Origin: Nemertoderma westbladi
Taxonomy: Eukaryota > Animalia > Xenacoelomorpha
Assembly (NCBI GenBank): GCA_032718475.1
Contig: JAUCBJ010003873.1
Location: 1-53,844 of the forward strand
Direction: 5' to 3'
DNA: 53,844 nucleotides
The position numbers were made by a program, and so were the translations under genes. Below, piece by piece: positions 17,579-53,844 of this stretch; position 1 is the first letter of the stretch, and each line of letters starts with the position of its first letter. The notes under the pieces were generated by a model. That model worked only from the letters and a program-made list of their open reading frames with translations. It made no database searches and was not told the origin of the DNA.

Positions 17579-18836
17579 TGTACGCGCTTTTGAAGACCTT
17601 TAGCAGTTTAACCTGCCAAAATTTATATGTCTTTTGGTTTATAAATAGACTTTAGAAGATGACAAATATTTAATACCAATAAACACAACATTAGCAGAAG
17701 CCAGCCTAGTGCGCGTCCATTCACCCGCTGGATATACCCGGGAGACTGGATTCTGAGGGCTTAGATTATTATTGCAGTGTAAGCTTACTGTATTGTATTA
17801 TTCGATTGATCGTTAATAAATTTCTGACTAATATTATTTACTTTCGGGAAATATTAACAGTTCCTTTAGGACGTGGCGCTCTATCTAGGTAAACAGAGAT
17901 ATGACTTATACTAATCACAACGGCAAGTCGGTAAGGCTTATGATTCACGTATGAGGCGCATTCTTTAGGAAATGCTTAGTTATCAGTCACAATCATGCAC
18001 ACTACCGGTAACACACAATACTGCTCACTAATTTGCCGACCGTCAATGAATTTTATCATATATAAAGAGAACAGCAACGAATCATGTAGTGCTTACCAAA
18101 TAGCATTAAGTTCACTACAAACCACAACAATATAAGTCGCAATCGCTATATATAACCCGTCTCTCTAACCTGTAGTGTATCAAGAAAATTGGGAAATTTG
18201 GGTTCTTTATATATGTTCTCCAAATAATATTCGACCAACTAATACAAAATATGACAACAGTAAAAGCATTAAGACGGTAGGTTAAGATATGATATGAATG
18301 ATATGTTATGACAAGATATGCACTGATAACAGTTATACGCTCTATAATTTAAGCCTACTAATGTTTCTTCTAAAGTATGAAACGAATTGACTCTAGAGCC
18401 GGTGTTCCTGGCCTAGATAGCAACAACACAACAGTATCACCAAAAAACAGTAAGACTGAACACTCCCAGGATGATCGGCCGAATACCTCCACATCGACAG
18501 AAAAAATCGCTCTGATTGGCTTAAGCCAAACAAAGAACCATGTGTCCAATGGCTGTTCCCATGTCAGCAACCAGCTGTTAGATGTCGTAATATGAATCAT
18601 CAAGGCTAAGCTGTGTAAAGGTATTTGGTGCATTGCCGGTTTTTTGCCTTACCATGTCCGCCAAAACACGTATATAGAAGAATGACTTTTATGTCCGTTA
18701 AAACACCTATAACGGTACCTTGCGGGCAAGGGGAATATATATATAGTTAGAGAGCCTTTTAGAGTATTCCAGCGCCTGGGGGGAAACTGGATTGCGAAGC
18801 AAAAGGGGCCAGTTATATCCCACATAAGCTTTTACA
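17579..18836 (-). repeat. 3' LTR of element A (1258 bp)
   Basis: Direct repeat of 28883-30141; by eye 2 substitutions and one A-run indel. Confidence 0.96.
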
Positions 18837-18914: not shown

Positions 18915-20366
18915 TTAGTCTTTCTTGCGCGGACGGCGTTTACGCAGTTTTTTAAAGCTAGCCAGAGTCCTTTTCTCTTTGGGGCGAGCCACTTTACAAG
19001 GAGGGCTATAACTCCTGGGTGAAGGGTGCAATATGATTGCATCAGAGGGTGTAGGATTATGGTCGGTGTATCCGCCAGTCGAAGTACCGGGTTGATTGAC
19101 ATCAACGTCCGGGGAGAGGGGTCTAATGGCTTTGAGAGCTCGTTTCAAGACAGCCGCTCTTACGGGTCCTTTACGAGTGGTCTGAACGAGGGCCGTGGGT
19201 GGACCATAGGCAGTTAGAAACCTCCGGGGTTTTATGGTTCTTTCCAACTCGCGTTCGCGGGCTCGGTATTCGTAAGGCCGTCGATATACTTCCTGTAACT
19301 CGGGGTGTGAGTTAACAAACAAGTCTCCATAGTCCGGATCCTGACGGATATAATTGATTAAGTTATAGGAATGAAGGTCGCTAGGATTAACACTCCTGAG
19401 AAATTTGCGTACGAATTTGGTTGAAATACATTCTCCGACGCGCTTCAGTAGCTCGTAACTTGATATGCGTGATTTCTGTTCAACCGAAGCGAATAGATAA
19501 GGATGGAACGCATAAACTCCTTCGTAAGCGCGTCCGGGATAATAGCGATGGCGCGAATCACAATGTAAATCAGCGTTCGCTTCACAAGCTCTGATGTAAC
19601 GTAGTGTGATCATTTCATCTACGCTTTCCAAATCATGATTAAAAGGGCAATCGAAACTGGCGTGTCCCTTTAGTTGACAATGGTGACATTGCGTCATAAA
19701 TTGAGGGCAAACCGCAAAAATATGCAAGTTATTGAGTCTGCAATATGCGCAATAAATTTCCATCGCCGGTTGTTCGTGGAAATAGGAACAGCGGACGACG
19801 TTTGTGTCCATGGGCGTAACATGGTCTCTCGATGCGCATAACCGACAACGTTGCCGAGAAACATAGTTGGCATGGCGATAATTGTACGCAGTGAGACACT
19901 GTGGACCTTGATACCATTCTAGGATGTAATCGTTGTCGCTGTTCCGGGCGCGATAGGCTGAATCTCCTCAGATTCTAGGCATATTGGTTCGTCTTCCCAG
20001 TCTGTTACGAATAGAATTTTCGTGATCTATTCTCGGTTTATCGTTACGACTCCGCTGGGTATGATATTTAAATAGAACCATTTCCCTTTCGGTGTCTACA
20101 TCGTCCGTATCATGTAAATCGATAGGATGGCCGGTAGTTAGGAAGTCCATATACGCACTATTACGATGCGTATAGCGAGCGGTGAATTTTCGATAGTCCA
20201 ATTCACGCGTAAGTTGCTCTTGGGACATCGGCGGTTCGATATAACGACCATCGTCCTCCGTAATGGTTGGATCGGTTTCACCGCGTATCAAGCTATCCAC
20301 AAATGCTTGTAAAGGTAGAGTATATCGCTCCCTGATACCAAGATCATCTTCTATCAACTCCGTCAT
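18915..20366 (-). pseudogene. Accessory ORF3 of element A: about 483 codons, zinc knuckles and a basic tail, one in-frame TGA at 19968-19970
   Basis: The 132-aa and 298-aa ORFs share a frame (starts 555 nt apart) and the linker is open (GDSAYRARNSDNDYILEWYQGPQCLTAYNYRHANYVSRQRCRLCASRDHVTP); motifs CAYCRLNNLHIFAVC and CHHCQLKGHASFDC; tail KKLRKRRPRKKD. Confidence 0.75.
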
Positions 20367-21190
20367 ATCTGCTATCTGAGTTTATTAATATCGAAATGAG
20401 TTTATGTTTAGGCGAGCCGACGTCACTGCCTACCTCTCTTTGCCCCCGGACAGTGGGATTCTCAGCGCCGATGTACCGTCGTCGAGGTGTTTACGCCAAC
20501 ATGTAGCAACAGCACGACAACGATAACCGGCACAAGTCACTCCACTGTCCGTCCCAAAGGCTTGAATCCACTTTAGGTTCTTTCTATAGGAGAGTTGGGC
20601 TACTTTCACAATTGCGACTAGCTACTGTAAACATACTTTAGCAGTAACATTCACCTATAAACGCACAAATTCCACACAACTGTCACCAATTGTACACATA
20701 CAGGCCATTTGTCCGTTAGTCAGTGCCTTCCAGAATGTCACGTTATTACTGTGTATCCTTGGATACTAACAGTGTGCTATGTATTCTCTATGCTATGCAA
20801 TGGGACAAGCTTTCTGTTGTTCTTTTAACTTGCTTCTAATTCTAGCGTGGGTGTTGCTATGGTGACATTATGGAAAGCTAGCGGTAGAATTAGGGTAATT
20901 CTCATGCATACAGATCTGGGATGCTATTTAATAATAATTCTTTAATTGTCAATATCCTCTTTATGCATGATTTTATTAATTTTATCGGCTATTGACTATT
21001 ATTTATGTTGGAGATTCTCGCACTCTAATACACTCAATAGGATGAATCTCCGCTCCCATGATCTATTAATTAATGGAATTTTGGGAATGTTATAAATTGC
21101 ACAAAATGACAATTTATAAAATTCATTTAAAATATGAATTTAAATTTATTCCCGTGAATTTTATTATTTGATGTTAAAATTGACACAATT

Positions 21191-22002: not shown

Positions 22003-25000
22003 TTACGTTATGGAGTCCCTAGATATTTGTCGGATTAGGGAAGTGGTCGTAGGAAGAGTATCTTGCCTTCCATAGTTTCCGGACAGTTTTCGGTCTCTTT
22101 CCAGTAAACATAAACGACTAGCTGGGCGATTGAGTTGTTGTGTTACTTTCTCCGCTCCCTTGGCCTGTCTAATCTTCACCGGGTTAAGATGAGGAGGCCA
22201 TTCTTCTTCTTCTTTACTTAAGAAGTCGGATCCACCTAACCAGCCTGGAGTATCTATCAGTTCTTGAGGAGTTGCTCCTCTGGAAGCGATGTCGGCTGGA
22301 TTAATCGTCCCAAGGCAATGTCTCCATTGATCTACATTGGAGTTAATATCGTCATTATCTGAGGAGTATGGTGTTTCCTCAGTTGGATCGTCCACATCAC
22401 TGCTCTCCACTTCCCATTCCTTTACTTGGTATACCTGTTGTTGAGGTAATCTCTCTTTGAGAGTTCTACGGGAAGGGCCAGTGAAGTACCAACCTACTCT
22501 AGTTCTTACCGCATAGGTTTGTAGTGGCTGCGGTTGAGCAGGCCGTTTCTCCAATGTCTCGAGCGCCTCATGCGCGTTTTGGCCGATGAGTATTTGCACT
22601 CCAGGATAATCTGTCTGGAATCGAGGTATCTTAAGATGTTGGATGCTCTCATCCTCGTCCCAATTATAAAGGTCTGCTTGGGTAGTAGCGAAGTTCTTTA
22701 TAGCCACCATTTTTACCGACCTTATACCTTGTGCTCCTAATTTATCCTGGGGGGTGGACAACACACCTACATAGTAATCTGCCGTTAGGGTAGATTTCCA
22801 AACCTGCATAATTCCTGACATATTCAATTTAGTCCGGAATTTGGGTTGTCCAGCAAAGATATCTTCGGCTAGTTCTTGATCGATGAATGATTCCTGTGCT
22901 GCCGGAGTCAAGGAGGGCGTTCTCTGATCGGTAACTTTTGTTAGGACCATGAACTCTTACCTGCACTACAGGAAATTCTCTGATTCCTACGTTGGAAGTT
23001 GGAGCTTTCCAAGATGGTTGTCTGGCAAAAGTAGTTGGGGGGAACTCATTGTCGGTGTCCTTTTCATAAGTAAGTGCTCGATACACTGAGGTATTTATTA
23101 GGTAACAGGATTCGTTGGCGTCGGAGAATTCGTCAGTATAGAATCCTTCCATCTCAGACTCTTGATCAGTGTCATTTACATCACTGAATTGGACATGTAG
23201 TTCGGGCTCACTTACCTGACTCGGGTTGTCTCGTTCGAACTCACTGTGTAACAAGATGTGATGTTTCGCGCCACACTTTGCACACTTTACGTCGGAGTAA
23301 CAGGTTCGCCGTTGGTGTCCTGATCTGAGGCAATTATAGCATAACCGCTTATTCCACAGGACTGTACGTCTGTCTACAAGGGATTTCTTTAGAAATTCAG
23401 CACACGCACTCAAACGGTGGGGCCCGTCGCACAGTGTACATTTTGGTTTGATGTTACTCACTTTACCTTGGGTAACTTGATGCACTCTCGTTCTTTCTTC
23501 GGGCTTTCTTCCGTGAATTCTCTTAGGAGACGTAGGAGGAGTTGTTGTTACCTGTTCTCTCCTGTCACTGGTTCGAGACTTGTATTTACTTACGTCTTTA
23601 TAGGTCTTGTTGTCATAGTAAGATTTTGCTGTGTCTTTCCCGCTGTCCTCTTCTTGAAAAGCTTGGCTTTCGCCGTCGTCAGTATAACACACCGGTATTA
23701 TCCTTCTCCTAGAAACGGGTTTCTCACTTACCTTATTTTCCGATGTTTTCTCTCTGGACTGCTTTATGAGTTGTAATTTTACTTCACTATCTAAGAAGGA
23801 CATGAGATCAGCCATGGTAGGGCTTCGTCGTTGCTGTTCATTCATATACAACACTTTCTTGTCCCAGCGTGTACATACTCCACCCTTTGGTAAAGTAGAG
23901 ACTACGGCTCCAATAACCATGGAACTCTGATATTCATGAGACTTACCTAACCAGTCCAATTGTCTACAGATTTCCTGAATCTCATCGGAAAACTCTATAA
24001 TACCGCTACTAAGGAAGTTTCGGGGGGCTACTAATTTTGCATACAAATACTTAGCTATGTTATCCTTGTTACCATACCTGATGTTTAATGTATCCCAAAC
24101 TTGTCTTAATCCTTCTGGATGTCCAATAAACTTTAACGCCATTAACTTGGGAGGTCCTTCCAAGCACTTGATGAGGAACCTAAGTTTCTCTCCGTTAGAT
24201 AGTACAGAGTTCTGTATGCTATCTTTGTAATATTCATTGAAAGGTAACCATTTCATCTCATCTCCATTGAATTTAACGATCTCTCCCACTTTGACCGCTT
24301 GGCAGGCTTCTGTTCTAGCCATCTGACGCGTAAAGCTTTCTTGGGCCATCGTGTTATTTAATATCGAATTATCGGTATATAAATTTCTCGGATCATTGTC
24401 AGGTCTATAGGGAATATCATTAATAACAGGTCTATAATCACCCTTAATAGGGTTTGCTATAGGAGTTTCTACTTCACTAGCAGTATAGATGCGTGTAGGC
24501 ATGTAGGCTCCACACCTTCCGCATGTAATACTTCAGACCTAACAGGTTGACACAATGTTACAGGGGGTATTGGTATGCCTTTTTGTATATTGACTAATTT
24601 GTCGCGTTCCAGTGCGATACTTTGCTGCACTTCTTGCAATTCTGCCCTACCTTCCCTTACTGTTCCCTTAAGCTGGTGGACAGTCTCCTGCATCTGTCCG
24701 AGCAGGAGGTTCATCCCCCGCCGTCCCTCCTCTACCCACTCGACCGCCGAAGCGGGAGTCGCCAACATTGTAGCGGGCCGACGCTGGACGACGGGAGACA
24801 AATCTTTGATTTCTCTCTCTGCTATCAGGACAGGGATATTCTCCTGGACTGTTCTATCGGGTACAGGCAGTGTAGTACTATGTAAAGGGAATTTAGAGTT
24901 AAGCTCTGGAAGTACAGGGGTCTCTAACACAGAAGTGACTTTGGGAACGACAGGCCTAATTATTTCAGGCTCATCAACTATTGTAGGGAGTCTTTTGACC

Positions 25001-26657
25001 TGAATAGTTTGGTCTGTGGGTTCCGTACTACCTAAGTCTGTGCTAGCTAGCTGTCTTCTAACAGCTGGGGGCAAATCAGGCAATTTGTGACGGTGAGATG
25101 TTTTTCTACGCCTGCTTAGACGAGATCTATTTCCTCCGCCTTCAGGATCGGTGGTTTCGCTTTCTTCCGATGATGTGTATCCCTGGCGTTTGGGAGTAGA
25201 TTTTCTCATCATCTGCATGTGACTAGCAGTTAACTGTTTATTTATGTTGTCTTGCGTCTCTTGCAGATTTTCCAACTCCAGTTGGGTAGTCTCCTCAGAC
25301 GCTCTCCGTTCTGCTTCTGCCACTGCCTTTGCTGCCTTTCTTTCCACTTCTGCTTCTGCCATTGCCGCTGCTACTGCTGCTGTCTTTCTTTCCACTTCTG
25401 CTTCTGCCATTGCCGCTGCCGCTGCTGCTGCCTTTCGGTCCACTTCTGCTTCTGCCATTACCGCTGCTACTGCTGCCGCCTTTCGTTCCTCAATCCGTCT
25501 TTTCTTTACTTGTTCTTCTTGGACTCTAGTGAGGCGGAGTTTTTCATCAAATTCAGCTTGGTTAGCAGCTAACATTTCAGCATCGATTGAGTCTAACACA
25601 CGCTGGGTTCCTTCACTATTAGGGGAAAGTCCAGACAGCCGTCTCCTCAACTCTTCGTCTCCTAGGAATCGCGATAGTCAGACAGATAAATGTCTATGGC
25701 GTCTCTCGTTCGTGGTCTCTCTGCGGTCTCTTCGCCTTCCACTCGAGAAAGGGTGGCATCGGTTGGTTCTTCATAGGTTAGTCTCTCAGACAGCTGGGAT
25801 TTCCACTGGTCCGTTTCTTGTACTTTGAGACCTACCCGCTGGAACCAAGTTTTGACAGCAACCTGCAGCGACGTGTCCTGTCTTCTTTTGGAAGTTTCCT
25901 CAAAAGCTGATAGGATTAGTCGAATGCGTAGGGTTCTTTCGCGTACTTGGTATAGCAGTTCTTCCTGCTCTTGAGGTCCTTGGGGTTGTCGAAACAGTTG
26001 TTCTTCTAATCGCTCTAAGGTGCTGAAGAATCCCTGCACATATCCTGCTGCCGACCTCTTCCAAACAGCTGGATCCATCGTATCTTTAGCCACTCCCATC
26101 CTGTGTATATCTTCCCAAGTAGCCTCGGACAGATCTAACGGGAGTCCGGGTCCGGGAAAGTTCCATTGTGACTCGACAATAGACCTCAATTCTTCCCTGG
26201 CGTATCCCGCATAATTATCTTGGGTCGCTCGCTTATTTCTCGCCCAATCGGCTTGATGTTCCTCCACCGCAATCAATATAGTAGTTAGCACTGCGGCAGG
26301 AAGGGTGAGAAGGGGGTCCGAGTAGGCTTTAGCCGCCATCTGCAATCCGCGTTCGGGGGTCAGCTCGACAGTATCCGAATTACTGGAGCTATCGGATCGC
26401 TGGGAACAAGTTTCTTGACTAGGCTGTTGCTGCTGTGGGACAGCTGGTTCCTGGTTCCGTTTGACTTGGGCCCGAGTGCCGATGATAGACCTACGGTGTT
26501 GGATTAGCTTAGGGTCTGATACTTCTACTGGAGGGATGACCTTTCTTTCAGTAGGAGGTGAGCTGAACTCCTTTCTTAATCGCTCCATACTCCTATCTGT
26601 GTCACAGATGGTTGTATCGATTAGACTGTCTGATAGGTTTTGCTGGGTGTCAGACAT
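22003..26657 (-). pseudogene. Element A gag-protease-(deleted pol) polyprotein, broken by three frameshifts
   Basis: ORFs of 331, 393, 557 and 315 aa are colinear with element B; IVKFNGDEMKWLPF..LSNGEKLRFL (DUF1759-like), CTLCDGPHRLSAC, CYNCLRSGHQRRTC, CAKCGAKHHILLH, ALLDSGS; frameshifts near 25670, 24500 and 22900-22930. Confidence 0.9.
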
Positions 26658-28016
26658 GTTTAGCTATACAGTTGAATGCTTACTGCTATAGTTACAGTTA
26701 AAGCAAGTCTAGTAATTCAGTATGACCGTTGGCTTAGTACCGGTAATTTATTGCAGTATATTAGAATACCGGTATGCACTTATAATTTATATAAGTATTG
26801 TAAACTAGGTTTGTCACAGAGTACCGGTATATAAATTTAGCACAAATATATAAATATATAATAGGCCTATCGTGAATACCGGTATGCAGCTGACACTTAT
26901 AGTATATAAGTATAATTCTGGACTAGAATTAATTACAGAGTACCGGTATGATTTCAGCCTAAATTTATCGAATAAATATAATAAGCCTATTGTAAATACC
27001 GGTATGTCAATTATTTTAAAATAATTGAATTTCTGAATGTTAGGGGTTACTTGGTTACTTTACTTACTTTATTACCGTTATTTAAGCAGTAGTCCAACTG
27101 ATATGGAGACCTAGTTGTTGTATGGCAGGCCTACTATTTATAAATCGTTTGAGTTGATTTATAATATATATATACCCGTTTAAAAGGGGTTTTGTCAATA
27201 TTTGAAATAAATTTTATTATTTCCGGGGGAGTCACTACACAGAAGCTGTGCGCTCTCAGTGAAGTGCTACCTATGGGACACTAAAACAGATAATTCTAAT
27301 TTACCTAAGTTACTTAATACTACAAATTGCTTACGATACGGGTGAGATTAAATCTCTAATTAAACACAACAAAATATTACGTACGAATTTTTAGGGTAAT
27401 TTTACAGGAAGTCTACAAACCAGTCTAACAAAGGGTTAGAATTCGGTTTATTACAACGGACAGGGTACTACGGTATTTGAAAATAATAAGTAGTAGTAAA
27501 TATATTGCACTGTCCAGATAGGAAAATACCACCGCCTGACGACCTATAGCCGTATCGCTATAGGTACTACGTTATGTATCACGGAGTGTTCCTACCTAGA
27601 AGTTAATTACCGCGGACTACCAGATCCAACGTGCCTATTAACCACTTTACAACACAAATATACTGCCTACACACTAATTACTTTCGGAAAGCACTGTACA
27701 CTAAACCCTAAATTAGGTACAAGTACTGGTACAACAAATAATCAGTAGTTAAATATACTTGAACAGTTAAAAGAACCACGGCATCTGCTGGAGTGACCGA
27801 AGCACAAAGTCACCAGTCTTTTCCTACGCCAAGCAGCCCGTGTAGTACCGGGGTTAATTTAACTATAACGGTATGTGTAACAAACACAATTACTGTAGGA
27901 ATAAACTTGGGGACATGAATGTTGCGAATAATCGCATAAACTCTGAATAATAAATATTACGCTACCCGTACAGAATACTCAAACAAAATACAAACCAAAC
28001 GCTGGCAGACTACCAC

Positions 28017-28466: not shown

Positions 28467-28871
28467 TAATCTCTCCAAACCCAACAACAATCCGACAACA
28501 GTCCGGCCTACAATTATCTGAACAATCTGAGCAGACTTACACGTCTTCAGCTCAATATTAACTTACATGTAAATAAAACTGACAGAAATAAGTAAGCTCC
28601 AAAAGAAACAAGGGGTGACAGTCCCTAATCTCTTAAACAGCCTACCGGTATGCAATAATCAAATCGAATAATACTAATGTACTTATACTGGAAGTACCGG
28701 TTAGGACAGTTGGGCCTACGGACCTACAGAAGTACCGGTTCTGGCAGTTGGACCTACGGACCTACAGCAGTACCGGTTCTGGCAGTTGGGCCTACTGACC
28801 TACAGAAGTACCGGTTCAGGTTTACCGGTCGACAGGTACTTTCAACTTTATTGCTTACTGCAATAAAGTCA

Positions 28872-28882
28872 ATAACTGTTAT
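28872..28882 (-). other. Non-tRNA primer-binding site of element A (ATAACAGTTAT)
   Basis: Directly follows the 5' LTR end (..CGCGTACA); no TGG; perfectly complementary to LTR positions 29630-29640 on the same strand. Confidence 0.7.
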
Positions 28883-30141
28883 TGTACGCGCTTTTGAAGA
28901 CCTTTAGCAGTTTAACCTGCCAAAATTTATATGTCTTTTGGTTTATAAATAGACTTTAGAAGATGACAAATATTTAATACCAATAAACACAACATTAGCA
29001 GAAGCCAGCCTAGTGCGCGTCCATTCACCCGCTGGATATACCCGGGAGACTGGATTCTGAGGGCTTAGATTATTATTGCAGTGTAAGCTTACTGTATTGT
29101 ATTATTCGATTGATCGTTAATAAATTTCTGACTAATATTATTTACTTTCGGGAAATATTAACAGTTCCTTTAGGACGTGGCGCTCTATCTAGGTAAACAG
29201 AGATATGACTTATACTAATCACAACGGCAAGTCGGTAAGGCTTATGATTCACGTATGAGGCGCATTCTTTAGGAAATGCTTAGTTATCAGTCACAATCAT
29301 GCACACTACCGGTAACACACAATACTGCTCACTAATTTGCCGACCGTCAATGAATTTTATCATATATAAAGAGAACAGCAACGAATCATGTAGTGCTTAC
29401 CAAATAGCATTAAGTTCACTACAAACCACAACAATATAAGTCGCAATCGCTATATATAACCCGTCTCTCTAACCTGTAGTGTATCAAGAAAATTGGGAAA
29501 TTTGGGTTCTTTATATATGTTCTCCAAATAATATTCGACCAACTAATACAAAATATGACAACAGTAAAAGCATTAAGACGGTAGGTTAAGATATGATATG
29601 AATGATATGTTATGACAAGATATGCACTGATAACAGTTATACGCTCTATAATTTAAGCCTACTAATGTTTCTTCTAAAGTATGAAACGAATTGACTCTAG
29701 AGCCGGTGTTCCTGGCCTAGATAGCAACAACACAACAGTATCACCAAAAAAACAGTAAGACTGAACACTCCCAGTATGATCGGCCGAATACCTCCACATC
29801 GACAGAAAAAATCGCTCTGATTGGCTTAAGCCAAACAAAGAACCATGTGTCCAATGGCTGTTCCCATGTCAGCAACCAGCTGTTAGATGTCGTAATATGA
29901 ATCATCAAGGCTAAGCTGTGTAAAGGTATTTGGTGCATTGCCGGTTTTTTGCCTTACCATGTCCGCCAAAACACGTATATAGAAGAATGACTTTTATGTC
30001 CGTTAAAACACCTATAACGGTACCTTGCGGGCAAGGGGAATATATATATAGTTAGAGAGCCTTTTAGAGTATTCCAGCGCCTGGGGGGAAACTGGATTGC
30101 GAAGCAAAAGGGGCCAGTTATATCCCACAGAAGCTTTTACA
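28883..30141 (-). repeat. 5' LTR of element A (1259 bp)
   Basis: Minus strand TGTAAAAGCTT...CGCGTACA; repeat of 17579-18836. Confidence 0.96.
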
Positions 30142-33343: not shown

Positions 33344-34471
33344 TTATTGGAGGTTAATGAGACAGGCATCCAGATGAGAGTTAATATCATTAGCTGGAAC
33401 CGGTTTCCGGCAGGAAGGGCATGCCACCTCGTTGTCGTAATGAATAGCGTAGCTAGTGGAGGCTACCGGCTCGTACGAGGTCGAGAAGGAATTGTTGCTA
33501 TGGTTGAAATCCAATGTGGTCGACAATAGGAGATTGTTTGATGGGGATTGTTGGGATGTAGCGAAGGGATTGTTTGATGGGGATTGTTGGGATGTAGCAA
33601 AGGGATTGTTTGATGGGGATTGTTGGGATGTAGCGAAGGGATTGTTTGATGGGGATTGTTGGGATGTAGCGAAGGGATTGTTTGATGGGGATTGTTGGGA
33701 TGTAACGAAGGGATCTGGTCGGATTGGTGCAATGGGACTCGATGTGTTGAATGCGATGGGACTGATGGAACTGAACCGGGTTGGTGGGGACGGGACGCAG
33801 ACGGGACTGGGGGTCGTCGGGGACCAGTTGAACTCATCCTGCGGGTCGGCGACCCTGGGGGGAGTTCCTACGACGCCCGGTAGGGAGTGCCCCTCCGTAA
33901 CCCCTTGGGACCATTTACTGTACCCTTTTCCACCCCCAACGTTGTACCCCTTACCCAGCTGCGCGTTACCATTGACAACCGGCGACGTTAACACGTTACG
34001 AGCGGCCGAACTATCGCCTAGCAGCGAGAAACCCCGCCCAGAAAAGGGAACAAACGATTTAGCCTCGTCTACATTCTCCTTGTTATCCGTCGTGACTTCA
34101 TTAACTTCCAACATTTCATCACAGAATTCATCTTCATTTTCCACAGACTGGATATTATTATTACTAGAAACTTTGTTTCCCACGGTTATCCAGCCATCCA
34201 ATGACTTATTATTATTCGCCGTCGACTTATTTTTATTCTTTCTCGCTGTTTTAACGGGGATTTTATTTAATTTAACTTTATTTTTGTTAGTGAAGGCCTC
34301 GGGTTCGGCTACCTTTCTGAATGTTCCGCTACACACCGCGCGATGGCGCCCCCACCACGTGTCTCGGGGACTCGGGGCCCGGTTCATGGCGCGTCGGACG
34401 TACCCGAAGTACGGTTTGTTCTGTTGGCAGACCCCGTCGCAGCGCCACACGTGGGTCCGGTAGTGGTCCAC
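33344..34471 (-). CDS. SPRTN: SPRTN coding exon 3 (Zn-binding subdomain, PIP-like, SHP, UBZ4)
   Basis: Acceptor ttttggttctag|GTG; VDHYRTHVWRCDGVCQQNKPYFGYVRRAMNRAPS..WWGRHRAVCSGTFRKVAEPE; SHP FVPFSGRGFSL; UBZ CPSCRKPVPANDINSHLDAC. Confidence 0.93.
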   Translation of the reverse strand: MDHYRTHVWRCDGVCQQNKPYFGYVRRAMNRAPSPRDTWWGRHRAVCSGTFRKVAEPEAFTNKNKVKLNKIPVKTARKNKNKSTANNNKSLDGWITVGNKVSSNNNIQSVENEDEFCDEMLEVNEVTTDNKENVDEAKSFVPFSGRGFSLLGDSSAARNVLTSPVVNGNAQLGKGYNVGGGKGYSKWSQGVTEGHSLPGVVGTPPRVADPQDEFNWSPTTPSPVCVPSPPTRFSSISPIAFNTSSPIAPIRPDPFVTSQQSPSNNPFATSQQSPSNNPFATSQQSPSNNPFATSQQSPSNNPFATSQQSPSNNLLLSTTLDFNHSNNSFSTSYEPVASTSYAIHYDNEVACPSCRKPVPANDINSHLDACLINLQ

Positions 34472-41999: not shown

Positions 42000-44958
42000 C
42001 AGGTCAGGTCAGGTATTCTAGGTCATTGATCAAGAAAACTTGCCACCTCCATGCAGCATAAAGGAGGTGCCACCTGTAGCTGCATAGACCCTCTTACTAG
42101 GGCAAATCTGGTCCTGTAACTAGGACCCCCTTCGTTCTGGGATAAGGACGCCCGTGGTCCTGGATTAAGGACCCATATACTTGGCTGCAGGGGTATATGA
42201 CCTGGCCAGGCAGATGGTAAATTACCAATGGCTGGTCAGGAGTAGAGTGTTCTCATGTTCACTCTGAGGGCACTTCACTGCGACCTGCACCTGGCAGCAT
42301 GGGTACAGGGCATGACCCAGCAGATGAGCTGCAGAGCCAATGGTGGGTCATGTGCGCCAGAGTAGATATGGGTGATGGGCCTCATACCTGACTCCACTGC
42401 GACACCCACCCTGTGGAATGGCAAACCAGGGTGTGGTATTTGCCCCGAGAGCTGACTCGGCAAAAAAGCACCCCCCAACCCCCACTATGGATTACATTAG
42501 TAATGCGGAGGTCCAGCCACTAGAGGCCAGTGGAATGACTGGACACAATCGGCCTCACAGGCGTCAGTTATCTCCTGACCGGCTGCCTGTCTCACCCCCT
42601 ACTGGAGAGAGAGCGGCAAACGATTCTTTGAGTCCCTTTCTTGATGACCTTTCTGGCCCAAACCCTGGGTCACCAGGGAGGCCAGATTGTGAGGGGGAGA
42701 GGGATTCTGGAGTTGGAGGCTACTCTCATGTTCCACCCCGAACAACAAAGCCATTGGTGAATCTGAGGCAAGTCACTAGACTAGCCTCAGTATACACCCT
42801 AACACTCGGGTCCCCAATGCGACAAGGTGAGCTGACTGCCTTGGCAGATAAGCTTTCTCTTAGTGCAGTGGGTGTTCAAGAGCACCGAATGCAGACTGGA
42901 CAGACTGATGAGGTTCTGATTAAGGACATGGGGGCGGTTGGCGACTCGCCCTCGCTTCAGCAGATGATAGTGGCAATGGTGGAATTGGTCTATTGATGAA
43001 TCCAACTGCACATGCAGCATTGGACAAAATAGACCAAATCTCTAACCGCATCATCCGTTGCCACTTCTCATGTTCTGGAAGACTGGCTAAGAAATTTCCT
43101 AAGGTGGTGCTGATTGTGTGCTACTCTCCAAGAGGTACAACTGTAGAGGAGGTGGAAAATTTCTACCAGAATCTACAAGCAGCTACTGATGGAGTGGATC
43201 AGCATGCATTCTTAACATTCCTGGGAGTCTTTAATGAAAGTCTGCATCAATCACCTACATCGCCCTGGGTCTATAGCAATAGTGTTAACCGAAATTCCGT
43301 CCATCTTCAGAATTTTATCTCTGAAAATGGATTGTTTTCGGCTGGAACCCAGTTCAAGAAGCGAACTGGAAAGCTATGGACTCATAGTGGACCCAGTGGT
43401 CACAAGTCCCAGATAGACCATATCCTGTTTCGTAGGAAATACATGAGCTCTATACAAGACTGTAATGCATTTACACTACGACCCTTCTCCAGTGATCACC
43501 GCCTTATTGTGGCCAAGGTAAGACTTAGTCTGCGTGCTAGCAGAACAACGAAATCTGCCTTGCCGCGGCATGACTGGTCCTCTCTGTTGCAACAGCCAAG
43601 TGTGAGATCCAGCTTCACACTACAGCTGAGCAACCGGTATGAGGTTCTTGCCTCTGAGGCAGCAGATCACTGTGAGGGCTATACTGCCTTCACTGAGGCA
43701 GTTAAGTTAGCAGCTGCAGAAACAGTTCTTGTATACCCTCGAAACAGAAACAGGCCCCCTGGACTGACAACAAAATTCAGAAGTGCCGAAATGACCTCTA
43801 CAAGGCACAGAAAGAGTCCCGACTCAAACAGACTACAGCGGCCAAGAATGTAGTTAAGGCTGCATCTAGGTCCCTGAACAGGCAGTTATCTGTTAATTTA
43901 CAGGAGCTAATAAACCAACAGGTTGATGCCATCAATGATGCTGACGACATCAGGCAATCATCCCAGTCATGGAGGTCGATCAACTTGCTTGCTGGTCGAA
44001 AAAGCCAACCAACCACCAAGGTTAAGGCTGAATCACCAGCCGATCGCCTCAATGGTTGGAAGGCCCACTTTGAAAAGCTCCTCAATAATGACAGGGTATT
44101 GCCTGATAACGTTATAGTAAAAGTGAAAGTAAAAGTGTCTGAGTCTGTACTCCCAGATATTCCCATTGGTGATATCTCCTTTGCAGAAGCGAAGGCTGCT
44201 GCAAAGAGCATTAAGACCAATCGTGCCAGTGGAGTAGATGGTGTTCCCCCTGAGGTCTTTAAAATACCTGAGTGTTTAAAGCTCATCTATCCCATCATAG
44301 TAGACATGTACCGAACAACAAGAGTCCCACAAGAAATGAAAACAAATAAGTTGGTGCCAGTTCCCAAGAAGGGCAACCTAACACTCTATGGTTCTTTTCG
44401 GGGAATCTCATTGATCTCGATTGCTGCAAAGCTATACAATAGAATTATATTAAATCGCATCAGGGATCCCATTGAGAGACTGCTCCGTGGAAATCAGAAT
44501 GGGTTCCGTAAAGGTCGTGGGACCATGGAGCCCATTTTGGCACTTAGAAGGATAATTGAAGAGTTATCAAAAAAGAAAGACAGGCATCTGGCTGTTATCT
44601 TTGTTGACTTCTTCAAGGCCTTTGATTCAGTCTCTCGCTCACGTATGTTCAGCATACTTTCATTATATGGGATCCCTGATGAAATTATTGCAGCAATCAT
44701 ATCAGTATACGATGGTTCGACAACATTTGTGTCTACTGTTGACGGTGACACAGAACCATTTGAAGTGTTATGGGGCGTTCTCCAGGGAGATACACTTGCA
44801 CCATTCTTGTTCATAATTGTTGTTGACTATGTTCTACGCATGTCCTTAGATCATCATAATGATGATGGGGTGATGATAACTCCACCTACTGGCTCCAGAA
44901 GTCGAGGAAATCCTGCCAAGTACCTAAGTGATCTAGACTTTGCTGATGACTTAGGAGT
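42000..44958 (+). mobile_element. RTE-type LINE (AP endonuclease plus RT), frameshifted and interrupted by element B
   Basis: VGVQEHR, SQIDHIL, SDHRLIVAKV (APE); RGISLISIAAKLYNRIILNRI, NQNGFRKGR, FVDFFKAFDSV, GVLQGDTLAPFLF, LDFADD (RT); the 5' boundary is approximate. Confidence 0.9.
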
Positions 44959-46168
44959 TGTAAAAGCTTTTGTGGGATAACTGATTCGTTTGCCTTGTTG
45001 GCCAGTTCCCCCCCCGGTCGCTAGAATACTCTAAAGGGGATCTATAGTTAAAATAGTGCAAGCTACCAGCTTATTGGCTGATTTGCTGTACGCAGGTATC
45101 TGGGCTCTGTTTAATCGGCCAACCAGCCTAGAAAGGTTGCGTCATAGCCTTGTTTTTGTATCTCCCAATAGAATTTGAGTTAGCGTTGATTTTGACCTAT
45201 CACAGAGCTACTGAACTGAAATTTTCCTATCTCACTGCTCTTTCTCTGTGTTGAACGGGAGCTTCGTGGAATAAGGGTAGTTGGTATCCTCGTATAGAGC
45301 AGTAGTCACGAGTTTTTCAAAGCCACGAAAGAACGGCTTTGTAGTGTTTTGTGCTTTCTGCTTTTTAGCTCAACACTAGTAGGTTTAATTATAAGGACAT
45401 ATATCCTTTAACTCATGGAATCACTGCAATTTCGTAATCACTGCTGACACACGGCTTTTAATAACTGCTGAAACTGCTAAAATTACCTGCTCAATCAATA
45501 CTGTATATTGCTATTTGTTGTCGGTTATTCATTATATTTGTTGATGAATTATTATATTGGAATAACGAGAAATAACCCCGACACCCAATATTCTTGATAT
45601 ACCGAAGGTAAGAGAGAAAGGTTACCAATAACGATTGTGACTTATGTTAAAGTGGTTTGAAGTGAATCTAATGTTATTTGATAGACCCTACATGAGTCAG
45701 TCTGTGTTCCTTTTATATGTGACTAAAATCAGTGAAGATTGGCAGATTAGTGTGCAGTATTGTGCAGCATTGTGTACGAGTGAGTCTGTTAAAGAAGCAT
45801 TTCCTAAAGAATGCGCCATATATGTGAATTATAATTAAGCCATATCGTTGTGAGTAGTTTAAGTCATAACTCTGTTTATATAAATAAAGCGCCACGTCCT
45901 AAAGGAACTGTTAATATTCCCGAAGGTGAATAATATTGTCAGAGATTATATAATACTGTCAGTCGAATAATACATTAGGCTTACATAGCAATAAAATTAA
46001 ACCGTCGAACCCAATCTCCCGGGAATATCCAGCGGGTGAATGATCGCGCACAGATTGGTTTCGACTAGTGTAGTGAATCAAATACTTGTCATAGGCTAAA
46101 AAGCGATTTAATATCTAGAAGACATTAATTTGGCGGGTTAAACTGCCAAAGGTCTGAAAGCGCGAACA
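44959..46168 (+). repeat. 5' LTR of element B (1210 bp)
   Basis: TGTAAAAGCTTTTGTGGGATA...AAAGCGCGAACA; boundaries inferred from homology with the element A LTR termini. Confidence 0.88.
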
Positions 46169-46180
46169 TTAAAGGATATA
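46169..46180 (+). other. Non-tRNA primer-binding site of element B (TTAAAGGATATA)
   Basis: Directly follows the LTR end; exact reverse complement of TATATCCTTTAA at 45400-45411. Confidence 0.75.
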
Positions 46181-46544
46181 GCTTCTTTATCGCAGTAAGC
46201 AATAAAGTTGAAAGTACCGGTCAACCGGTAAACCTGAACCGGTACATCTGTAGGTCAGTAGGCCCAACTGCCAGAACCGGTACTGCCGTAGGTCCGTAGG
46301 TCCAACTGCCAGAACCGGTACTTCTGTAGGTCCGTAGGCCTAGCTGTCCTAACCGGTACTTCCGTATAAGTACACTAGTATTATTCGATTTGATTGTTGC
46401 ATACCGGTAGGCTGTTTAAGGGATTAGGGATTGATCACCCCTTATTCCTTTATATGGTTTACTTATTTCTGTCAAGTTTTATTTATTTGTAGGCCAGTAT
46501 TGAACAGAAGGCGTGTAAACCTGATCAGATTGTACAGACGATTT

Positions 46545-47050
46545 GTAGGCTGAGCTGTTGTCTGATTGCTGTTAAGTCCGAACGAATTGCAGTGTGTGTA
46601 GATCACCCGTCCGATTAAGTACGGTTAGGAAGTAGGGGCAGCGAATGCTGTAAGGTAAACCCCCAACTAAAGAATAAGTCGTACTACTGGGTTAGAACGC
46701 ATACTCCCTAATCATTTCGGAGTCTGCATGTCCTGTAGTTTATTTAGGCTTGAGAGTAGTCTGCCATCGTTTAGTCTGTACTTTGTTTGTGTAAGTCTGT
46801 ACGGGTAGCGTATAATTTTATTTAGATAATTTGTAGGCTGGATAGTTGTCTGGCTGTTATTAGGTCTGAACGGATTGCAGCGTGTGTAGATCACTTGTCC
46901 GATAAAGAACGGTTAGGAAGTAGGGGCAGCGAATGCTGTAAGGTAAACCCCCAATTAAAGAATAAGTCGTACTACTGGGTTAGAACGCATACTACCTAAT
47001 TATTTCGGAGTCTGCATATACCGTAGTTTGCTTAGGCTTGATAGTAGTCT
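46545..47050. repeat. Tandem duplication (period 288 bp) in the 5' leader of element B
   Basis: aataagtcgtactactgggttagaacgcatact at 46673 and 46961. Confidence 0.88.
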
Positions 47051-48426
47051 GTCAGTGTTCGGTCTGCATTTTGTTTGAGTAGTTTGTACGCGTAGCGTAA
47101 TATTTATTATTCAGAGTTTATGCGATTATTCGCAACATTCATTCCCCAAGCTTGTTCCTACAGTAATTGTGTTTGTTATACATACCGCTATAGTTAAATT
47201 AACCCCGGTACTACACGGGCTGCTTGGCGTAGGTAAAGACTGGTGATTTTGTGCATCGGTCACTCCAGCAGATGCCGTGGTTCTTTTAGCTGTTCAAGTA
47301 TATTTAACTACTGATTATCTGTTGTACAAGTACTCGTACCTAATTTAGGGTTTAGTGTACAGTACTTTCCGAAGTAATTAGTGTAGACATTATATTTGTG
47401 TTGTAAAGTGGTTGATAGGCACGTTCGATTAGCTCTATTAACTTCTAGGTAGGAACACTCCGTGATACATAACGTAGAACCTATAGCGATACGGTTATAG
47501 GTCGTCAGGCGGTGGTATTTTTCTATCTGGACAACGCAGTGTATTTACTACTACTTATTATTTCAAATACCGCAGTACCCTGTCCGTTGTAATAACCAGA
47601 ATTCTAACCCTTTGTTAGGCTGGTTTGTAGACTTCTTGTAAAATTACCCTGAAAATTCGTATTTTGCGTTTTTGTAAATTTTTGTGTTTATTTAGAGATT
47701 GTAATCTCACCCGAATTGTACGTAATTTGTAGTATTAAGTAACTTAGGTAAATTAGAATCATTTATTTTAGTGTCCTGTACGTAACACTTCACTGAAAGC
47801 GTACCGCTTTGTGTAGTGATTACCCCAGAAATAATAACATTTATTTCAAACATTGACTAAACCCATTAAAACGGGTATATATATATTATAAATAAAGTCT
47901 AACGATTTATAAATAGTAGGCCTACCATATAACAATTAGGTCTCAATATCAGTTGGACTACTGCTTAAATAACGGTAATAAAGTAAGTTAAAGTAACCAA
48001 GTAACCCTAAAGTTCAGAAATTCAATTATTCTAAAATAATTGACATACCGGTATTTACAATAGGCTTATTATATTTATTTCTATAAATTTTAGGTTGAAA
48101 TCATACCGGTATTCTGTAATTAATTCTAGTCTGTAATTATACTTATATATATACACTATAAGTGTAAACTGCATACCGGTATCCACGATAGGCCTATTAT
48201 ATATTTATATATATTTGTGCTAAAATTATACCGGTATTCGGTGATAAACCTAGTCTGTAATAATAGTTATATATACTATAAGCATACCGGTATTCTAATA
48301 TATTATATATCACGCTACACTGAGTAGCAGTACCGGTAATTAATTACTAGGCTAGCAGTTAATACTGAGTTACTAGACTTGCTCAGACTGTGATACAGCA
48401 GTAGACATTCAACTGTATACATAAAC

Positions 48427-51400
48427 ATGTCTGATACTAAGCAGAACCTGTCAGACAGTATATTAGATGTAACTATCTGCGACTCAGATAGAGGCGTAGA
48501 ACCACCTAGTCGTAAGTTCAGTTCACCTCCCACTGTGAGGAAAGTCATCCCTCCAGTAGTAATAACAGAACCTAGGCTAGTCCAACATCGTAGGTCTATC
48601 ATAGGCACCCGAGCTCAAGTCAAGCGGGACCAAGAAGCAGCGGAACAGCAACAACCCGCGAGTCAAGAACTTATTCCTCAGCGGCCCAGCAGCTCCAGTA
48701 GTGAGGATACTGTAGAGCTGACACCCGAGCGCGGAGCAGAGATGACGGATGCGGTTTATACGGATCCCCTTCTCATCCTTCCTGCAGCCGTACTCACTAG
48801 GTTATTGATCGCGGTGGAAGAACACCAGATCGATTGGGCGAGAAGTCAACGGTCAACTAGAGATAGTTACGCGGGATACACGAGTGAAGAACTGAAGTCT
48901 ATTGTCGAGTCGCAATGGAACTTCCCCGGACCCGGACTCCCGTTTGATTTATCAGAAGCTGCCTGGGAAGACATACACTGGATGGGAGTAGCCAAGGAAA
49001 CCATCGATCCAGCTGTGTGGAAGAGGTCCGCAGCCGGATACGCACAGGGATTCTTCAGCTCTATGGAGCGAGTAAAAGAACAACTGTTTCAACAACCTCA
49101 AGGACCTCAAGAGCAGGGATCGCTGCTTTATCAAGTTAGGGAAAGAATTCTACGAATCAGGCTAATCTTATCGGCCTTTGAGGAGGCTTCTAAAAGAAGA
49201 CAAGACACGTCGTTGCAAGTTGCCGTAAAGACTTGGTTTCAACGGGTGAGTCGCCAGGTTCAAGGAGCAGCTCAGTGGAAAGCTCAGTTGGAGGAGTGCT
49301 CAACCCATGGAGAATCAACAGACGCTACTTTTTCCCAAGTGGAAAGTGAAGCGACGGCAGAGAAACCGCATAAGAGGGATGCCATTGACATCTATCTGTC
49401 AGACTATCAACGTTTTTTAGGTAATGACGAGTTGAGGAGAAGGTTAGAGGGACTTAGCCCTAATAGTGAAGGAACCAAGCTTGTGTTGGATGCCATCGAT
49501 GTGGAAATGAGGGCTGCGAATCAGGCTAAATTTGATGAACAACACTGACACGAGTCCAAGAAGAACAAGTAAAGAAAAAACGTATAGAAGACAGAAAGAA
49601 AGCAGCAGTGGTAGCTGCAGAAGCAGAAAGAAAAGCGGCAGCGGCAGAGGCAGCGGCAGAGGCAAAGGCGGCAGAGGCAGCGGCAGAGGCAAAAGCGGCA
49701 GCGGCAGAGGCAAAGGCGGCAGAGGCAGCGGCAGAGGCAAAGGCGGCAGAGGCAGCGGCAGAAGCAAAAGCGGCCGAAGCTGAAAGAAAGGCGGCAGAGG
49801 CAGTGGCAGAAGCAGAACGGAGAGCGACTGAAGAAACCACCCAATTAGAATTAGAAAACATTCAGGAGAATCAAGACTGCATAAATAAACAGTTAACAGC
49901 TAGTAATATGCAGATGATGAATCGATCTACTCCCAAAAGGCAGGGATATACATCATCTGAGGAAGGCGATACCACCGATACTGAAGGCAAAGGAAATAGA
50001 TCTCGTCTAAGCAGACGTAAAAGAACATTCCACCGTCAGAAATTGCCTGATTTGCCTCCAGCTGTTAGAAAGCAACTAAATAGCACCAACTTAGGCAGTA
50101 CAGAACCCACAGACCAAATAATTAAAATAGAAAGACTCCCTACAATAGTAGATGAGCCTGAAATAATTAGGCCTGTTCTCGAAATCACCCCTTCGGTGAT
50201 AGACACACCTGTGCTCCCTGAAACTACCTCTAAATTCCCTCTGCATAGCACTAAGCTACCTGTGCCCCGTAGAACTGCCCCAGAGACAGTTCAAGTCCTG
50301 GGTCCCAAGCGAAATATTCATAATTTGTCGCCCGTTGTCCATCGTCCGCCCGCTACAACGTTGGCGACTCCCGCTTCGGCGGTCGAATGGGTGGACGAGG
50401 GACGGCGGGGGATGGATATCCTGCTCGGGCAGATGCAGGAGACTGTCCAGCAATTCAAGGGCACAGTAAGGGAAAGTAGACTAGAGTTGCAAGAAGTGCA
50501 GCAAAGTATCGCGCTAGAGCGCGATAAATTAGTAAATACTCAAAGAGGTATACCACCACCCTCTGTAACAATGTGTCAACCTGTTAGGTCTGAAGTATCT
50601 CATGCGCAAGGTATGGAGCCTACACGCATATATACTGCTAGCGAAGTAGAAACTCCTATAGTGAACCCTATTAAGGGTAATTATAGACCTGTTGATAATG
50701 ACATTCCCTATAGAACTGATCATAATCCGAGAAATTTATATACCGATAACTCGATATTAAATAACACGATGGCCCAAGAAAGTTTTACGCGTCAAATGGC
50801 TAGAACCGAAGCCCGGCAAGCGGTAAAGGTGGGAGAGATCGTCAAGTTCAATGGAGATGAGATGAAATGGTTACCTTTTAATGAATATTACAAAGATAAC
50901 ATACAGAACTCTGTACTATCTAATGGAGAAAAACTTAGATACCTCATCGAGTGCTTGGAAGGATCTCCCAAGTTAATGGCGTTAAAGTTTATTGGACATC
51001 CAGACGGATTAAGACAAGTTTGGGATACACTAAACATCAGGTATGGTAATAGGAATAATATCGCTGGGTACTTATATGCAAAGTTAGTAGCGCCCCGAAA
51101 GTTTATTAGTAGTGGAATTATCGAGTTTTCCGATGAGATCCAGGAGATCTGCAGACAATTAGATTGGCTAGGTAAGTCTCATGAGTATCAGAACACTATG
51201 GTTATTAGAGCAGTGGCTTCTACTTTACCGAAAGGTGGAGTAGGTACACGCTGGGATAAGAAAGTGTTATATATGATGGAACAACAATGACGAGACCCTA
51301 CCATGGCTGATCTCATGTCATTCCTAGATGGAGAAGTGAAATTACAGCTCCTGAAACTGTCCAGAGAGAAGACACCGGAAAACAAGGTAAGTGAAAAACC

Positions 51401-53844
51401 CGTCTCTAGGAGAAAGGTAACACCAGTATGTTATACCGATGACGGCGAAAGCCAGACTTCTCAAGGAGAAGATAGCGGGAAGGACACGGATAGATCTTAT
51501 TACGTAAATAAAATGCCTAAAGATCAGGTAAGTAAATTCAAGTCTCGAGCAAATGACAGGAGAGAACAGGTAAGAAAAACTCCTCCCACGTCTCCCAAGA
51601 GAATTCAGGTGAGAAAGCCCGAAGAAAAGGCAAGTGTACACAATGTGACTCAGAATAAGGTAAGTAACATCAAACCGAAATGTGCGCTGTGTGACGGGAC
51701 CCACTATTTGAATAGGTGTGATGAATTTCTAAAGAAATCATTAACAGAGAGACGCGAAGTCATGTGGGATAAGCGGTTATGTTATAATTGCCTCCGACAA
51801 GGACACCAACGGCGAACCTGTTTCTCTGACATAAGGTGTGCAAAGTGTGGTGCGAAACATCATATCTTGTTGCACGCTGAATTCGATCGAAATAGTCCGA
51901 ATCAGGTGAGTGATTCCGAGTTACATGTCCAATTCAGTGATGTGAACGACACTGATCAATCTGAGATGGAAGGATTCTATACAGACGAGTTCTCCGACGA
52001 AAACGAATCCTGTTACATGATAAATACCGCAGTGTATCGAGCACTCACATATGAAAAAGATACAGATAACGACTTTACTCTAACTACTTCTGAGCGACAA
52101 CCATCTTGGAAAGAGCCATCTTCCAATGTAGGGATCCGAGAGTTTCCTGTGGTGCAAGTAAGGGTTCACGGACCTGAGAGGAGTTATGTAGTGAACGCCC
52201 TCCTTGACTCCGGTAGTACAGGAACATTCATCGACAAAGAGCTAGCCGGAGATATATTTGCTGGACAACCCAAGTTCCAAACTAAGCTCAACATGTCAGG
52301 CATTATGCAAGTTTGGAAATCTACAATAACAGCTGATTATTATGTAGGAGCGTTGTCCACCCCCCAGGACGAACTAGGAGAACACAGCATAAGGTCAGTG
52401 AAAATGGTGGCTATAAAGAACTTCGCTACTACTCAAGCAGACCTTTATAATTGGGACGAGGATGAGAGCATCCAACATCTTAACATACCTCGATTCCAGA
52501 CTGATTATCCTGGAGTGCAAATACTCATCGGCCAAAACGCGCATGAGGCGCTGGAGACGTTAGAGAAACGGCCTGCTCAACCGCAGCCCCTACAGACCTA
52601 TGCGGTAAGAACTAGAGTAGGTTGGTACTTTACTGGCCCTTCCCGTAGAACACTCAGAGAAAGACTACCGCCAGAGAGCGTATGCCAGGTGAGTGAATGG
52701 GAAGATGATACCAGTGAGGGAGACAACTCAACTGAGGGAATTCCATACTCCTCAGATAATGACGACGTTCACCAGCTTTTTGATGAGGAGAATACCATCG
52801 ATCTCCTTAAGGAAAACGAGGCTTGGCAAAACCAAGTGAACTTATGTCAACTTCTCTATCCATCTGAACGAGAAGCTTATAACGACGAGTTAAATGACGT
52901 CATTGAGCGTTGCAATGCCAAGACTCGAGATGAACATGCTGTACGATTCTTTACGCAAGAGGCGGTAGAGCCCAATTCCTACGATAAAGCCTTGTCGGTG
53001 GAAGAGGAAAGGGCCAAGCAGATCCAAGAGACAACTACACGTTTCCTCAAAGATCAAGGTAGGTATGAAGTCGGTTTACCTTTCCGCAAGAGAGAACCGA
53101 AGTTCATCAATAACAGACCTTTGGCGGAAAAAAGAATCGCGCAACTCCATCGACGCCTTACGGCTAATTCTTCAGCTAAAGCAATGTATCAAACACAGCT
53201 GGAAAAATTTATTAGTAAGGGATACGCGGAGAGAGTACCGGAAGAAACACCTGTGACTGAAAGAACGTATTACTTAACTCACCATTACGTTCCTAAACCC
53301 GGTAAACCACACGAAGTGAGAGTAGTGTTTGATGGCTCCGCTCTTTACATGGGTCAATCCCTTAACTCTGAATTGTTACCCGGACCCAACTTGCTTCAAT
53401 CTTTGTTGGGAATTCTTTTAAGATTGAGACAATATTCGATTGCTTTCGCCTCCGATATAGAAGGCATGTTCTTACAAGTCAAGGTGTTAGATAGGGATCG
53501 AGATAGTCTACGATTTCTGTGGTGGCCCGAAGGAGATCTCAACCAGAAACCGGTGGAGTACTGGATGACCATCCAGGCCTTTGGGATAATCTCAAGCCCT
53601 TCCAACGCCTGTTCGGTAGTGCGTACTACTGCAGAGGACAACCGAGAGGCATTCTCTAAGGAAGTGATCGACAACATCAAGAGAGACATATACATGGACG
53701 ACAATCTGAAGTCCCTCCCATCAGTTGAGGAAGCCATTGAGGTCGCTAAGGGAACGGTAGAGTGCTTAAAAAGAGGTGGATTTCGATTAACCAAATTCAC
53801 CAGCAACTCCCGTGAGTTTCTGGAGTCGATCCCTGCGGAAGATC
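48427..53844 (+). pseudogene. Element B gag-pol (Gag, protease, RT); frameshift near 49545 and TGA at 51288-51290
   Basis: 373-aa and 560-aa ORFs, then a frame apparently open to the window end (ALLDSGSTGTFID; YMDD near 53691-53702); QQ*RDPTMAD versus QQRRSPTMAD in element A indicates CGA>TGA. Confidence 0.9.

Follow-up and report, generated by a model that had tools for sequence, protein, structure and literature searches.

The window, meaning the whole 53,844-nucleotide stretch of Nemertoderma westbladi DNA that was analyzed, contains two related long terminal repeat (LTR) elements, A and B (Table 1). Comparison of the window with itself shows that they are approximately 82% alike over 7.3 kb, with the similarity ending at 22349 in the coordinates of A. 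The full comparison was confined to these two copies, neither of which is intact. The insertion of A is recent, because its LTRs differ at so few places and because a 5-bp target duplication still flanks it (CACAG; 30142-30146 on one side, 17574-17578 on the other). Element B starts within the frame of a non-LTR reverse transcriptase (RT), and in contigs of sequencing runs the host LINE copies part from the window sequence after 44958; the 3' LTR of B lies outside the window. Three host-like frames were also found, and no close relative was found for the LSM12-like protein. Elsewhere in the window, a 10-nt tandem array of 244 copies (11155-13659) has an inverted block of 37 copies nearby (14435-14843).

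Table 1. Coordinates of the elements, candidate priming sites, and other features of the window
Feature	Coordinates	Strand	Remarks
FAR-17a/AIG1-like host frame	1010-1501		weak
LSM12-like host frame	4952-5641	-	without break
Element A	30141-17579	-	12.6 kb despite deletion
A 3' LTR	17579..18836	-	1258 nt; second primer copy at 18326-18336
A extra 3' frame, after pol	18915..20381	-	Cys/His-rich; 137 + 350 aa, one stop between
A gag-protease, four frames	22003..26663	-	three frame changes; RT and most of RNase H/integrase deleted
A primer-binding site, ATAACAGTTAT	28872..28882	-	without TGG
A 5' LTR	28883..30141	-	1259 nt; 3 differences from 3' LTR
A candidate self-primer, ATAACTGTTAT	29630..29640	-	exact complement of A primer-binding site
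SPRTN-like host frame	33344-34471	-	
Non-LTR reverse-transcriptase frame carrying B	43706..44958	+	RVT_1, E 5e-20; cut after FADD motif
B 5' LTR	44959..46168	+	1210 nt, TGT..ACA; homologous to A LTR end to end
Block kept in A and B before primer	45362..45400	+	pyrimidine tract, TAG, TAGTAGG, TATA-like word
B candidate self-primer	45401..45411	+	11 nt, or 12 nt with T45400 (TATATCCTTTAA); exact reverse complement of B primer-binding site
U5 hairpin, predicted	46129..46150	+	8-9 bp; 18-19 nt before primer-binding site
B primer-binding site, TTAAAGGATATA	46169..46180	+	without TGG
Leader hairpin, predicted	46185..46207	+	directly after primer-binding site; AATAAA in 3' arm
B gag-protease-RT	48394..53843	+	frame change near 49540; in-frame stop 51288-51290; leaves window

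Both elements encode a DUF1759 gag (E of 9.5e-13 and 4.9e-12) with three Cys/His knuckles, followed by a DSG protease and, as read in B, an RT with a YMDD motif. A DUF1759 gag, a triple Cys-His box, DSG, and YXDD are hallmarks of BEL/Pao in the available text of PMC554778. Protease precedes RT in B up to the end of the window, and A retains only protease and a short later piece of Pol. The RT part of B matched 109 proteins at up to 47% identity; almost all of them carry PF05380 or PF03564, and the nearest were from corals, echinoderms, and amphioxus. By their proteins, A and B are members of the BEL/Pao lineage, and they depart from its ICTV profile at the primer-binding site (PBS). Within BEL/Pao, they presumably belong on the Sinbad/Suzu side. 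The extra frame of A (approximately 490 codons) matched no family above the cutoff, a zinc-knuckle match being weak and below it (E 0.033), and all Atlas leads for it were under 0.9. The 2.2-kb leader of each element includes 3.3 copies of a 38-nt repeat as well as a duplication of 288 nt (46236-47115 and 27942-28817), and the long N-terminal part of gag carries an alanine/glutamate/lysine repeat of variable length (49592-49814 and 25330-25489).

The PBS of each element is exactly complementary to a word within its own LTR. The original prediction placed the PBS of B at 46169-46180 and its 12-nt complement at 45400-45411, and gave the distance to the LTR end as 757 nt in B and 747 nt for the corresponding site of A; the words, the coordinates, and both distances were confirmed. 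Each word is unique in the window apart from these sites and the A 3' LTR, where an identical word (18336-18326) is also complementary to the A PBS. The A PBS word was also found directly after the LTR in contigs of sequencing runs X1 and X3. In both elements, the base that directly follows the LTR is the first to pair, and the duplex is not extendable into the LTR. That it should be flush with the LTR end had been proposed, as had 46168 as the end of the B LTR, and both hold: the ends of A are set by TG..CA and the CACAG duplication, and the end of B agrees with A by homology and with contigs of other copies, which depart there with mixed flanks in three of four runs (agreement, 0.47-0.67). 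TGG is absent from the 32 nt after the LTR in both elements, which bears out the claim of a tRNA-independent PBS in elements with BEL/Pao proteins.

The duplex of B has a predicted energy of -10.3 kcal/mol. Dinucleotide shuffles of the LTR contained the word in 6/5000 cases for A and 1/5000 for B, and an equally long match was obtained from 12/10003 internal starts in A (at least 11 nt) and 1/7633 in B (at least 12 nt). The A PBS is nearly palindromic and could therefore also self-pair in a dimer. It opens with ATAAC, as does the Tf1 PBS given in the available part of PMC11042837, a likeness that is probably due to chance.

The two LTR 11-mers both lie 24 nt after a common TAGTAGG and align without gaps. 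Four of the 11 pairs differ between A and B, at primer positions 4, 6, 7, and 11 and their partners at PBS positions 8, 6, 5, and 1, and all four are compensated (chance, approximately 4e-5 if the changes were independent). Thus, both partners have changed together with full pairing kept, as had been claimed, although the sites are not "very different," as was also claimed: they are identical at 7 of 11 positions, gapless as 11-mers, and the 12th pair of B comes from the extra T45400. Crossed duplexes between A and B have energies of -0.5 and +0.9 kcal/mol, compared with -10 for the native ones.

Identity between A and B is 64% in the PBS, 86% in the last 45 nt of the LTR, and 92% in the 60 nt after the PBS; at a flank rate of 12%, four or more changes in 11 have a P of 0.034. 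The pace of the PBS is thus that of the primer neighborhood, where identity is 66-67%. A host primer would keep the PBS constant, so a PBS that outpaces its flanks counts against one, and fast, fully matched change would be expected if the PBS were rewritten from the primer each round. Copying of the PBS into the cDNA end is described for Tf1 in the available part of PMC11042837. In the contigs, a PBS variant at 46173 makes up approximately 25% of the depth, and it could not be linked to a variant at its LTR partner site. A variant at 46169, predicted beforehand for B-type copies, was absent among the three variants listed, at a place where contig ends mask variants.

The block kept before the primer includes an acceptor-like TAG ending at 45368 (at -33 in A and -32 in B; 9 and 11 of 12 nt are pyrimidines), TAGTAGG at 45377-45383, and the TATA-like word TATAAGG at 45390-45396. 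The last 24 nt before the primer are identical at 16 of 24 positions. Core promoter and splice acceptor are candidate roles for this block. There is no TATA word near -30, and the only TATA-like word was found at -10/-11, in line with the approximately 10 nt given in the original prediction. Such a word would fit a start downstream of the primer, and the acceptor-like site at -32/-33 would fit one further upstream. No poly(A)-signal word occurs within 230 nt upstream of the primer. After the primer, the region from 45412 to 45530 consists of highly variable short repeats; depth is lower there than elsewhere in the LTR, and the divergence of several copies begins just past 45410.

A spliced primer was rejected for both elements (spliced P of 0.38 for A and 0.23 for B; contiguous P of 0.007, the floor). 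For a hypothetical intron that would shorten the loop, a donor-like site is kept in both elements (45608; +167 in A), the acceptor near 46137 is absent in B, and the only shared acceptors downstream are weak. The candidate acceptor near 46137 seems better read as the predicted U5 hairpin. No GT..AG joint was present among the 11 joints listed from contigs of the sequencing runs, which cannot show starts, and one contig of X4, a run taken as RNA by guess only, passes unbroken through 45608; neither observation weighs for or against splicing.

In predicted folds, A retains the U5 hairpin, two of its pairs being exchanged (G-U/G-C and A-U/G-U). The stem of the leader hairpin is a perfect 9 bp in A and has one mismatch in B, at 46191, which is private to this copy: all of the listed depth in four of four runs has T there, restoring the pair. 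For RNA that starts at the primer, the helix of primer and PBS forms in the minimum free energy fold as well as in the centroid fold, in A and in B (z of -2.6 and -1.6). The predicted mean pairing probability is 0.71-0.95 in both when the start lies 0-11 nt ahead of the primer, 0.73 and 0.42 at -15, at most 0.08 at -20 and -30, and zero at -40 and -150; as predictions over approximately 800 nt of RNA, these folds weigh little alone.

Relatives were sought with an alignment of 27 proteins, which identified 79 loci in metagenomes (from the best 80 of 537) and 19 in a genome collection. A repeat around pol was present at 39 of these 98 listed loci; 16 were retained by eye, with both LTR 3' ends seen, and 23 were dropped. 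All but one of the 16 lack TGG. A check of related elements had been proposed with the original prediction, and it found a self-complementary PBS of 10-15 nt in 14 of the 15 listed relatives without TGG and none in the one TGG element (L075; P = 0.24). Among these 15, the complement spans a GT..AG intron in the LTR in 12 (10-15 Watson-Crick pairs), two have 10-11 unbroken pairs, and one has 8. The PBS begins 0-4 nt after the LTR, the words are family specific, the introns are 67-451 nt long, and AATAAA or ATTAAA lies between primer and LTR end in 11 of 15. The distance from primer to LTR end is 44-216 nt (n = 15), so that the 747-757 nt of A and B do represent an unusually long loop, as had been suggested. 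L075 carries at 406-425 TGGTAGCAGAGC, which is the tRNA-Met word of GalEa (available part of PMC5445492) and not the Arg or Gly word of the ICTV profile.

Against 150 random coding 25-mers each, at offsets 0-3 only, the spliced match had a P of ≤0.033 in 11 of the 16 relatives. A blind scan of the 70 listed loci with at least 700 nt upstream gave spliced matches at 19, with 15 different words, compared with 0/210 controls. The earlier claim that primer words are family specific is supported. Unbroken matches were found at 12/70 loci versus 11/210 controls. The unbroken word is present in both LTRs of L038, L055, and L027; the matches of L002 and L006 are false, lying in the coding region, and L070, one further unbroken match among those checked, is ambiguous. 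The putative self-priming trait is thus common among relatives and not peculiar to the A/B family, and what appears special to A and B is the intronless primer, the 750-nt loop, and the clean compensation of four pairs. The leader-hairpin pattern had no match in metagenome and viral contigs, and a protein scan of viral contigs found no relatives among 18 candidates.

Of 18 spliced relatives, 13 have a pyrimidine-A step between -2 and +1 relative to the start of pairing (background, 0.45; P = 0.018, for a window picked after the data were seen), which hints that the primer may be the RNA 5' end. No steady TATA spacing was found upstream of the relatives' primers, and a TATA-like word occurs within 260 nt in 9 of 19. 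Because the primer lies across the junction in 12 relatives, exon 1 would be only 3-11 nt long, or else the primer is internal. In the close sisters L082 and L083, the three exon-1 primer letters differ and the PBS changes match them, so that compensation crosses a splice junction. The primer of L046 and L047 is interrupted by a 168-nt intron and that of their tree neighbor L038 is unbroken in both LTRs, which makes loss or gain of an intron at the primer likely. Intron loss in L038 is read by eye and from the tree (0.945), the automated alignment of L038 and L046 having placed the gap uncleanly.

In an RT tree of 41 rows chosen from 122, built without an outside group, B falls among the BEL/Pao RTs; its branch is long and leaves an open fork that also bears L075 and other rows. 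All spliced elements fall in one 23-row clade (97/92, starred in the tree) that excludes B, and forcing B to be the sister of this clade was not rejected (p-AU, 0.53), so a second origin within BEL/Pao, shared ancestry, and intron loss are all compatible with the tree. The original prediction had proposed an independent origin of self-priming. This is likely with respect to Tf1/sushi, because the RT is that of BEL/Pao, and is not supported as an invention of the A/B family itself, given that most testable relatives are self-complementary and that the sister position was not rejected.

Self-priming is described for Tf1/sushi, Tcn1, and TAR elements in the available text of PMC6317226. In Tf1, the first 11 bases pair with the PBS and RNase H cuts between bases 11 and 12 (PMC7175516, available part). 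Elements A and B resemble Tf1 and Tf2 of S. pombe, Tj1 of S. japonicus, and the Tf1/sushi and Tcn1 members of Ty3/gypsy in lacking a tRNA site and in the complementarity of the PBS to an 11-nt word of the element's LTR, and the stem near the U5 end of the Tf1 group may have a counterpart in the predicted hairpin at 46129-46150 (available parts of PMC7175516 and PMC4600332). However, their RT is that of BEL/Pao and not of Ty3/gypsy (chromovirus), their loop of approximately 750 nt and 1.2-kb LTR set them apart, and the start site and RNase H cut, which have been shown for Tf1, are predictions for A and B. Elements A and B are not Tf1/sushi members, though they likely work alike. In the TAR lineage of plant Ty1/copia (Houba and Osr-1), self-priming was likewise predicted from sequence alone, with the criterion of a match of at least 10 nt starting 0-5 nt after the LTR (PMC6317226, available text), and the long loop may have a precedent in that lineage.

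In the ICTV profile of BEL/Pao (Belpaoviridae), the PBS is 18 nt long and pairs with tRNA-Arg or tRNA-Gly, and element length is 4.2-10 kb (PMC8742986). Elements A and B share with BEL/Pao the DUF1759 gag, the three Cys/His knuckles, DSG, the YXDD RT (47%), TG..CA LTRs, and, in A, a 5-bp duplication, but they differ from this profile in lacking a tRNA site and, for A, in measuring 12.6 kb despite a deletion. The splice-junction relatives are like A and B in their self-complementary PBS and family words, as are the intronless L038, L055, and L027, but their primer lies mostly across an intron and 44-216 nt from the LTR end, whereas that of A and B has no intron and lies 747-757 nt from it. C. 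elegans Cer7 is said to encode its own primer. Our search, which left subscription journals, Repbase Reports, and GyDB outside, found no published self-priming in BEL/Pao, nor is it a textbook feature of this group. None is reported in the available portions of PMC6317226, PMC7175516, PMC4600332, PMC5341516, PMC11042837, PMC5445492, PMC8220671, and PMC554778; the last describes no PBS for Sinbad in its available portion. In PMC3118150, a term search for primer, PBS, tRNA, and intron gave no match, and PMC3601003 contains one passage on self-priming.

The primer of A and B very probably has LTR sequence. As to its source, we favor self-priming in cis as the probable, though far from secure, reading: a word of the element's own LTR at or within approximately 15 nt of the transcript 5' end would prime the minus strand. 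By analogy with Tf1, RNA would start at the T|A step at 45401 in B and 29640 in A, its first 11 nt would fold back across the loop of approximately 750 nt onto the PBS, RNase H would cut after nt 11, and RT would extend the new 3' end directly into the terminal TGT, yielding a strong-stop DNA of approximately 750 nt. Plus-strand synthesis would then copy the primer back into the PBS, so that both sites would change together and each family would drift to its own word. This reading predicts an RNA start at 45399-45401 as well as the strong-stop product.

A different use of the same LTR word, which we consider unlikely, is that RNA starts upstream in the LTR, perhaps with splicing to the acceptor-like site at 45368, and that the primer is cleaved from within R. 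The acceptor-like TAG and its pyrimidines are kept in both elements, the relatives require an upstream exon, and TATA is missing near -30, all as this would have it. However, adding at least 20 native bases upstream lowers the predicted pairing to at most 0.08 in A and in B, pairing ends at 11-12 nt as if from a capped end, and a donor-like site at 45096, although kept in A and B, reads differently in much of the depth; the pyrimidine-A step near the pairing start of the spliced relatives, a post hoc result, also points to a 5' end. Still less probable is a primer of LTR sequence from elsewhere, whether from the 3' LTR of the RNA that is being copied or, in trans, from the many solo LTRs by way of their short transcripts or small RNAs. 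In favor of this, the family is abundant, with 13115 contig pieces in X1, the word is in both LTRs of A, 750 nt is a long loop, and a main RNA driven by the TATA-like word at -11 could begin past the 5' copy. Yet pairing is predicted to be lost when upstream sequence is attached, as it is in the 3' copy, and the lack of an upstream poly(A)-signal word, with the relatives' signal downstream of the primer, led us to reject the primer as an RNA 3' end.

That the duplex is instead a structural switch for packaging, dimerization, or translation, with an unrecognized host RNA such as a half-tRNA as the true primer, is a little less probable again. Its flush position at the LTR end is what priming requires, a host primer would fix the PBS, which outpaces its flanks here, and the 19 loci of the blind scan have 15 different words; these points outweigh, in our view, the hairpins on both sides of the PBS, the near-palindrome of A, and the half-tRNA priming known in Ty1/copia (PMC6317226, available text). 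No tRNA or Rfam gene was found in the window, and an element-encoded tRNA was rejected on the same ground. Chance, or a one-off inverted duplication without function, is very improbable given the fixed position in two copies, the four compensated changes, and the spliced form at 19/70 loci versus 0/210 controls, even though the words are AT rich, contiguous 11-nt matches arose in 11/210 of the loose blind-scan controls, and L002 and L006 match in coding sequence.

BEL/Pao is one of the three main groups of LTR retrotransposons, and its replication is called poorly understood (PMC8742986). If self-priming in cis is correct, the Tf1 mechanism would extend to the third group, after Ty3/gypsy, where it is shown, and Ty1/copia, where it is predicted. 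Such elements would no longer depend on the tRNAs of the host and would escape silencing by tRNA 3' fragments, and the failure of PBS finders on them would be explained. As an intronless counterpart to splice-built primers, A and B also bear on whether splicing is needed for priming or only gates it. A broader reading, tentative and a little short of probable, is that a large aquatic BEL/Pao branch left tRNA priming altogether, with the capped RNA 5' end, mostly a spliced exon 1 of 3-11 nt, as the primer and the PBS rewritten into private words; A and B would be its intronless sister with a 750-nt loop. Nineteen of the BEL/Pao elements (L080-L098) lie on contigs filed in bacterial metagenome-assembled genomes, and these contigs are most likely animal host DNA contaminating the bins.
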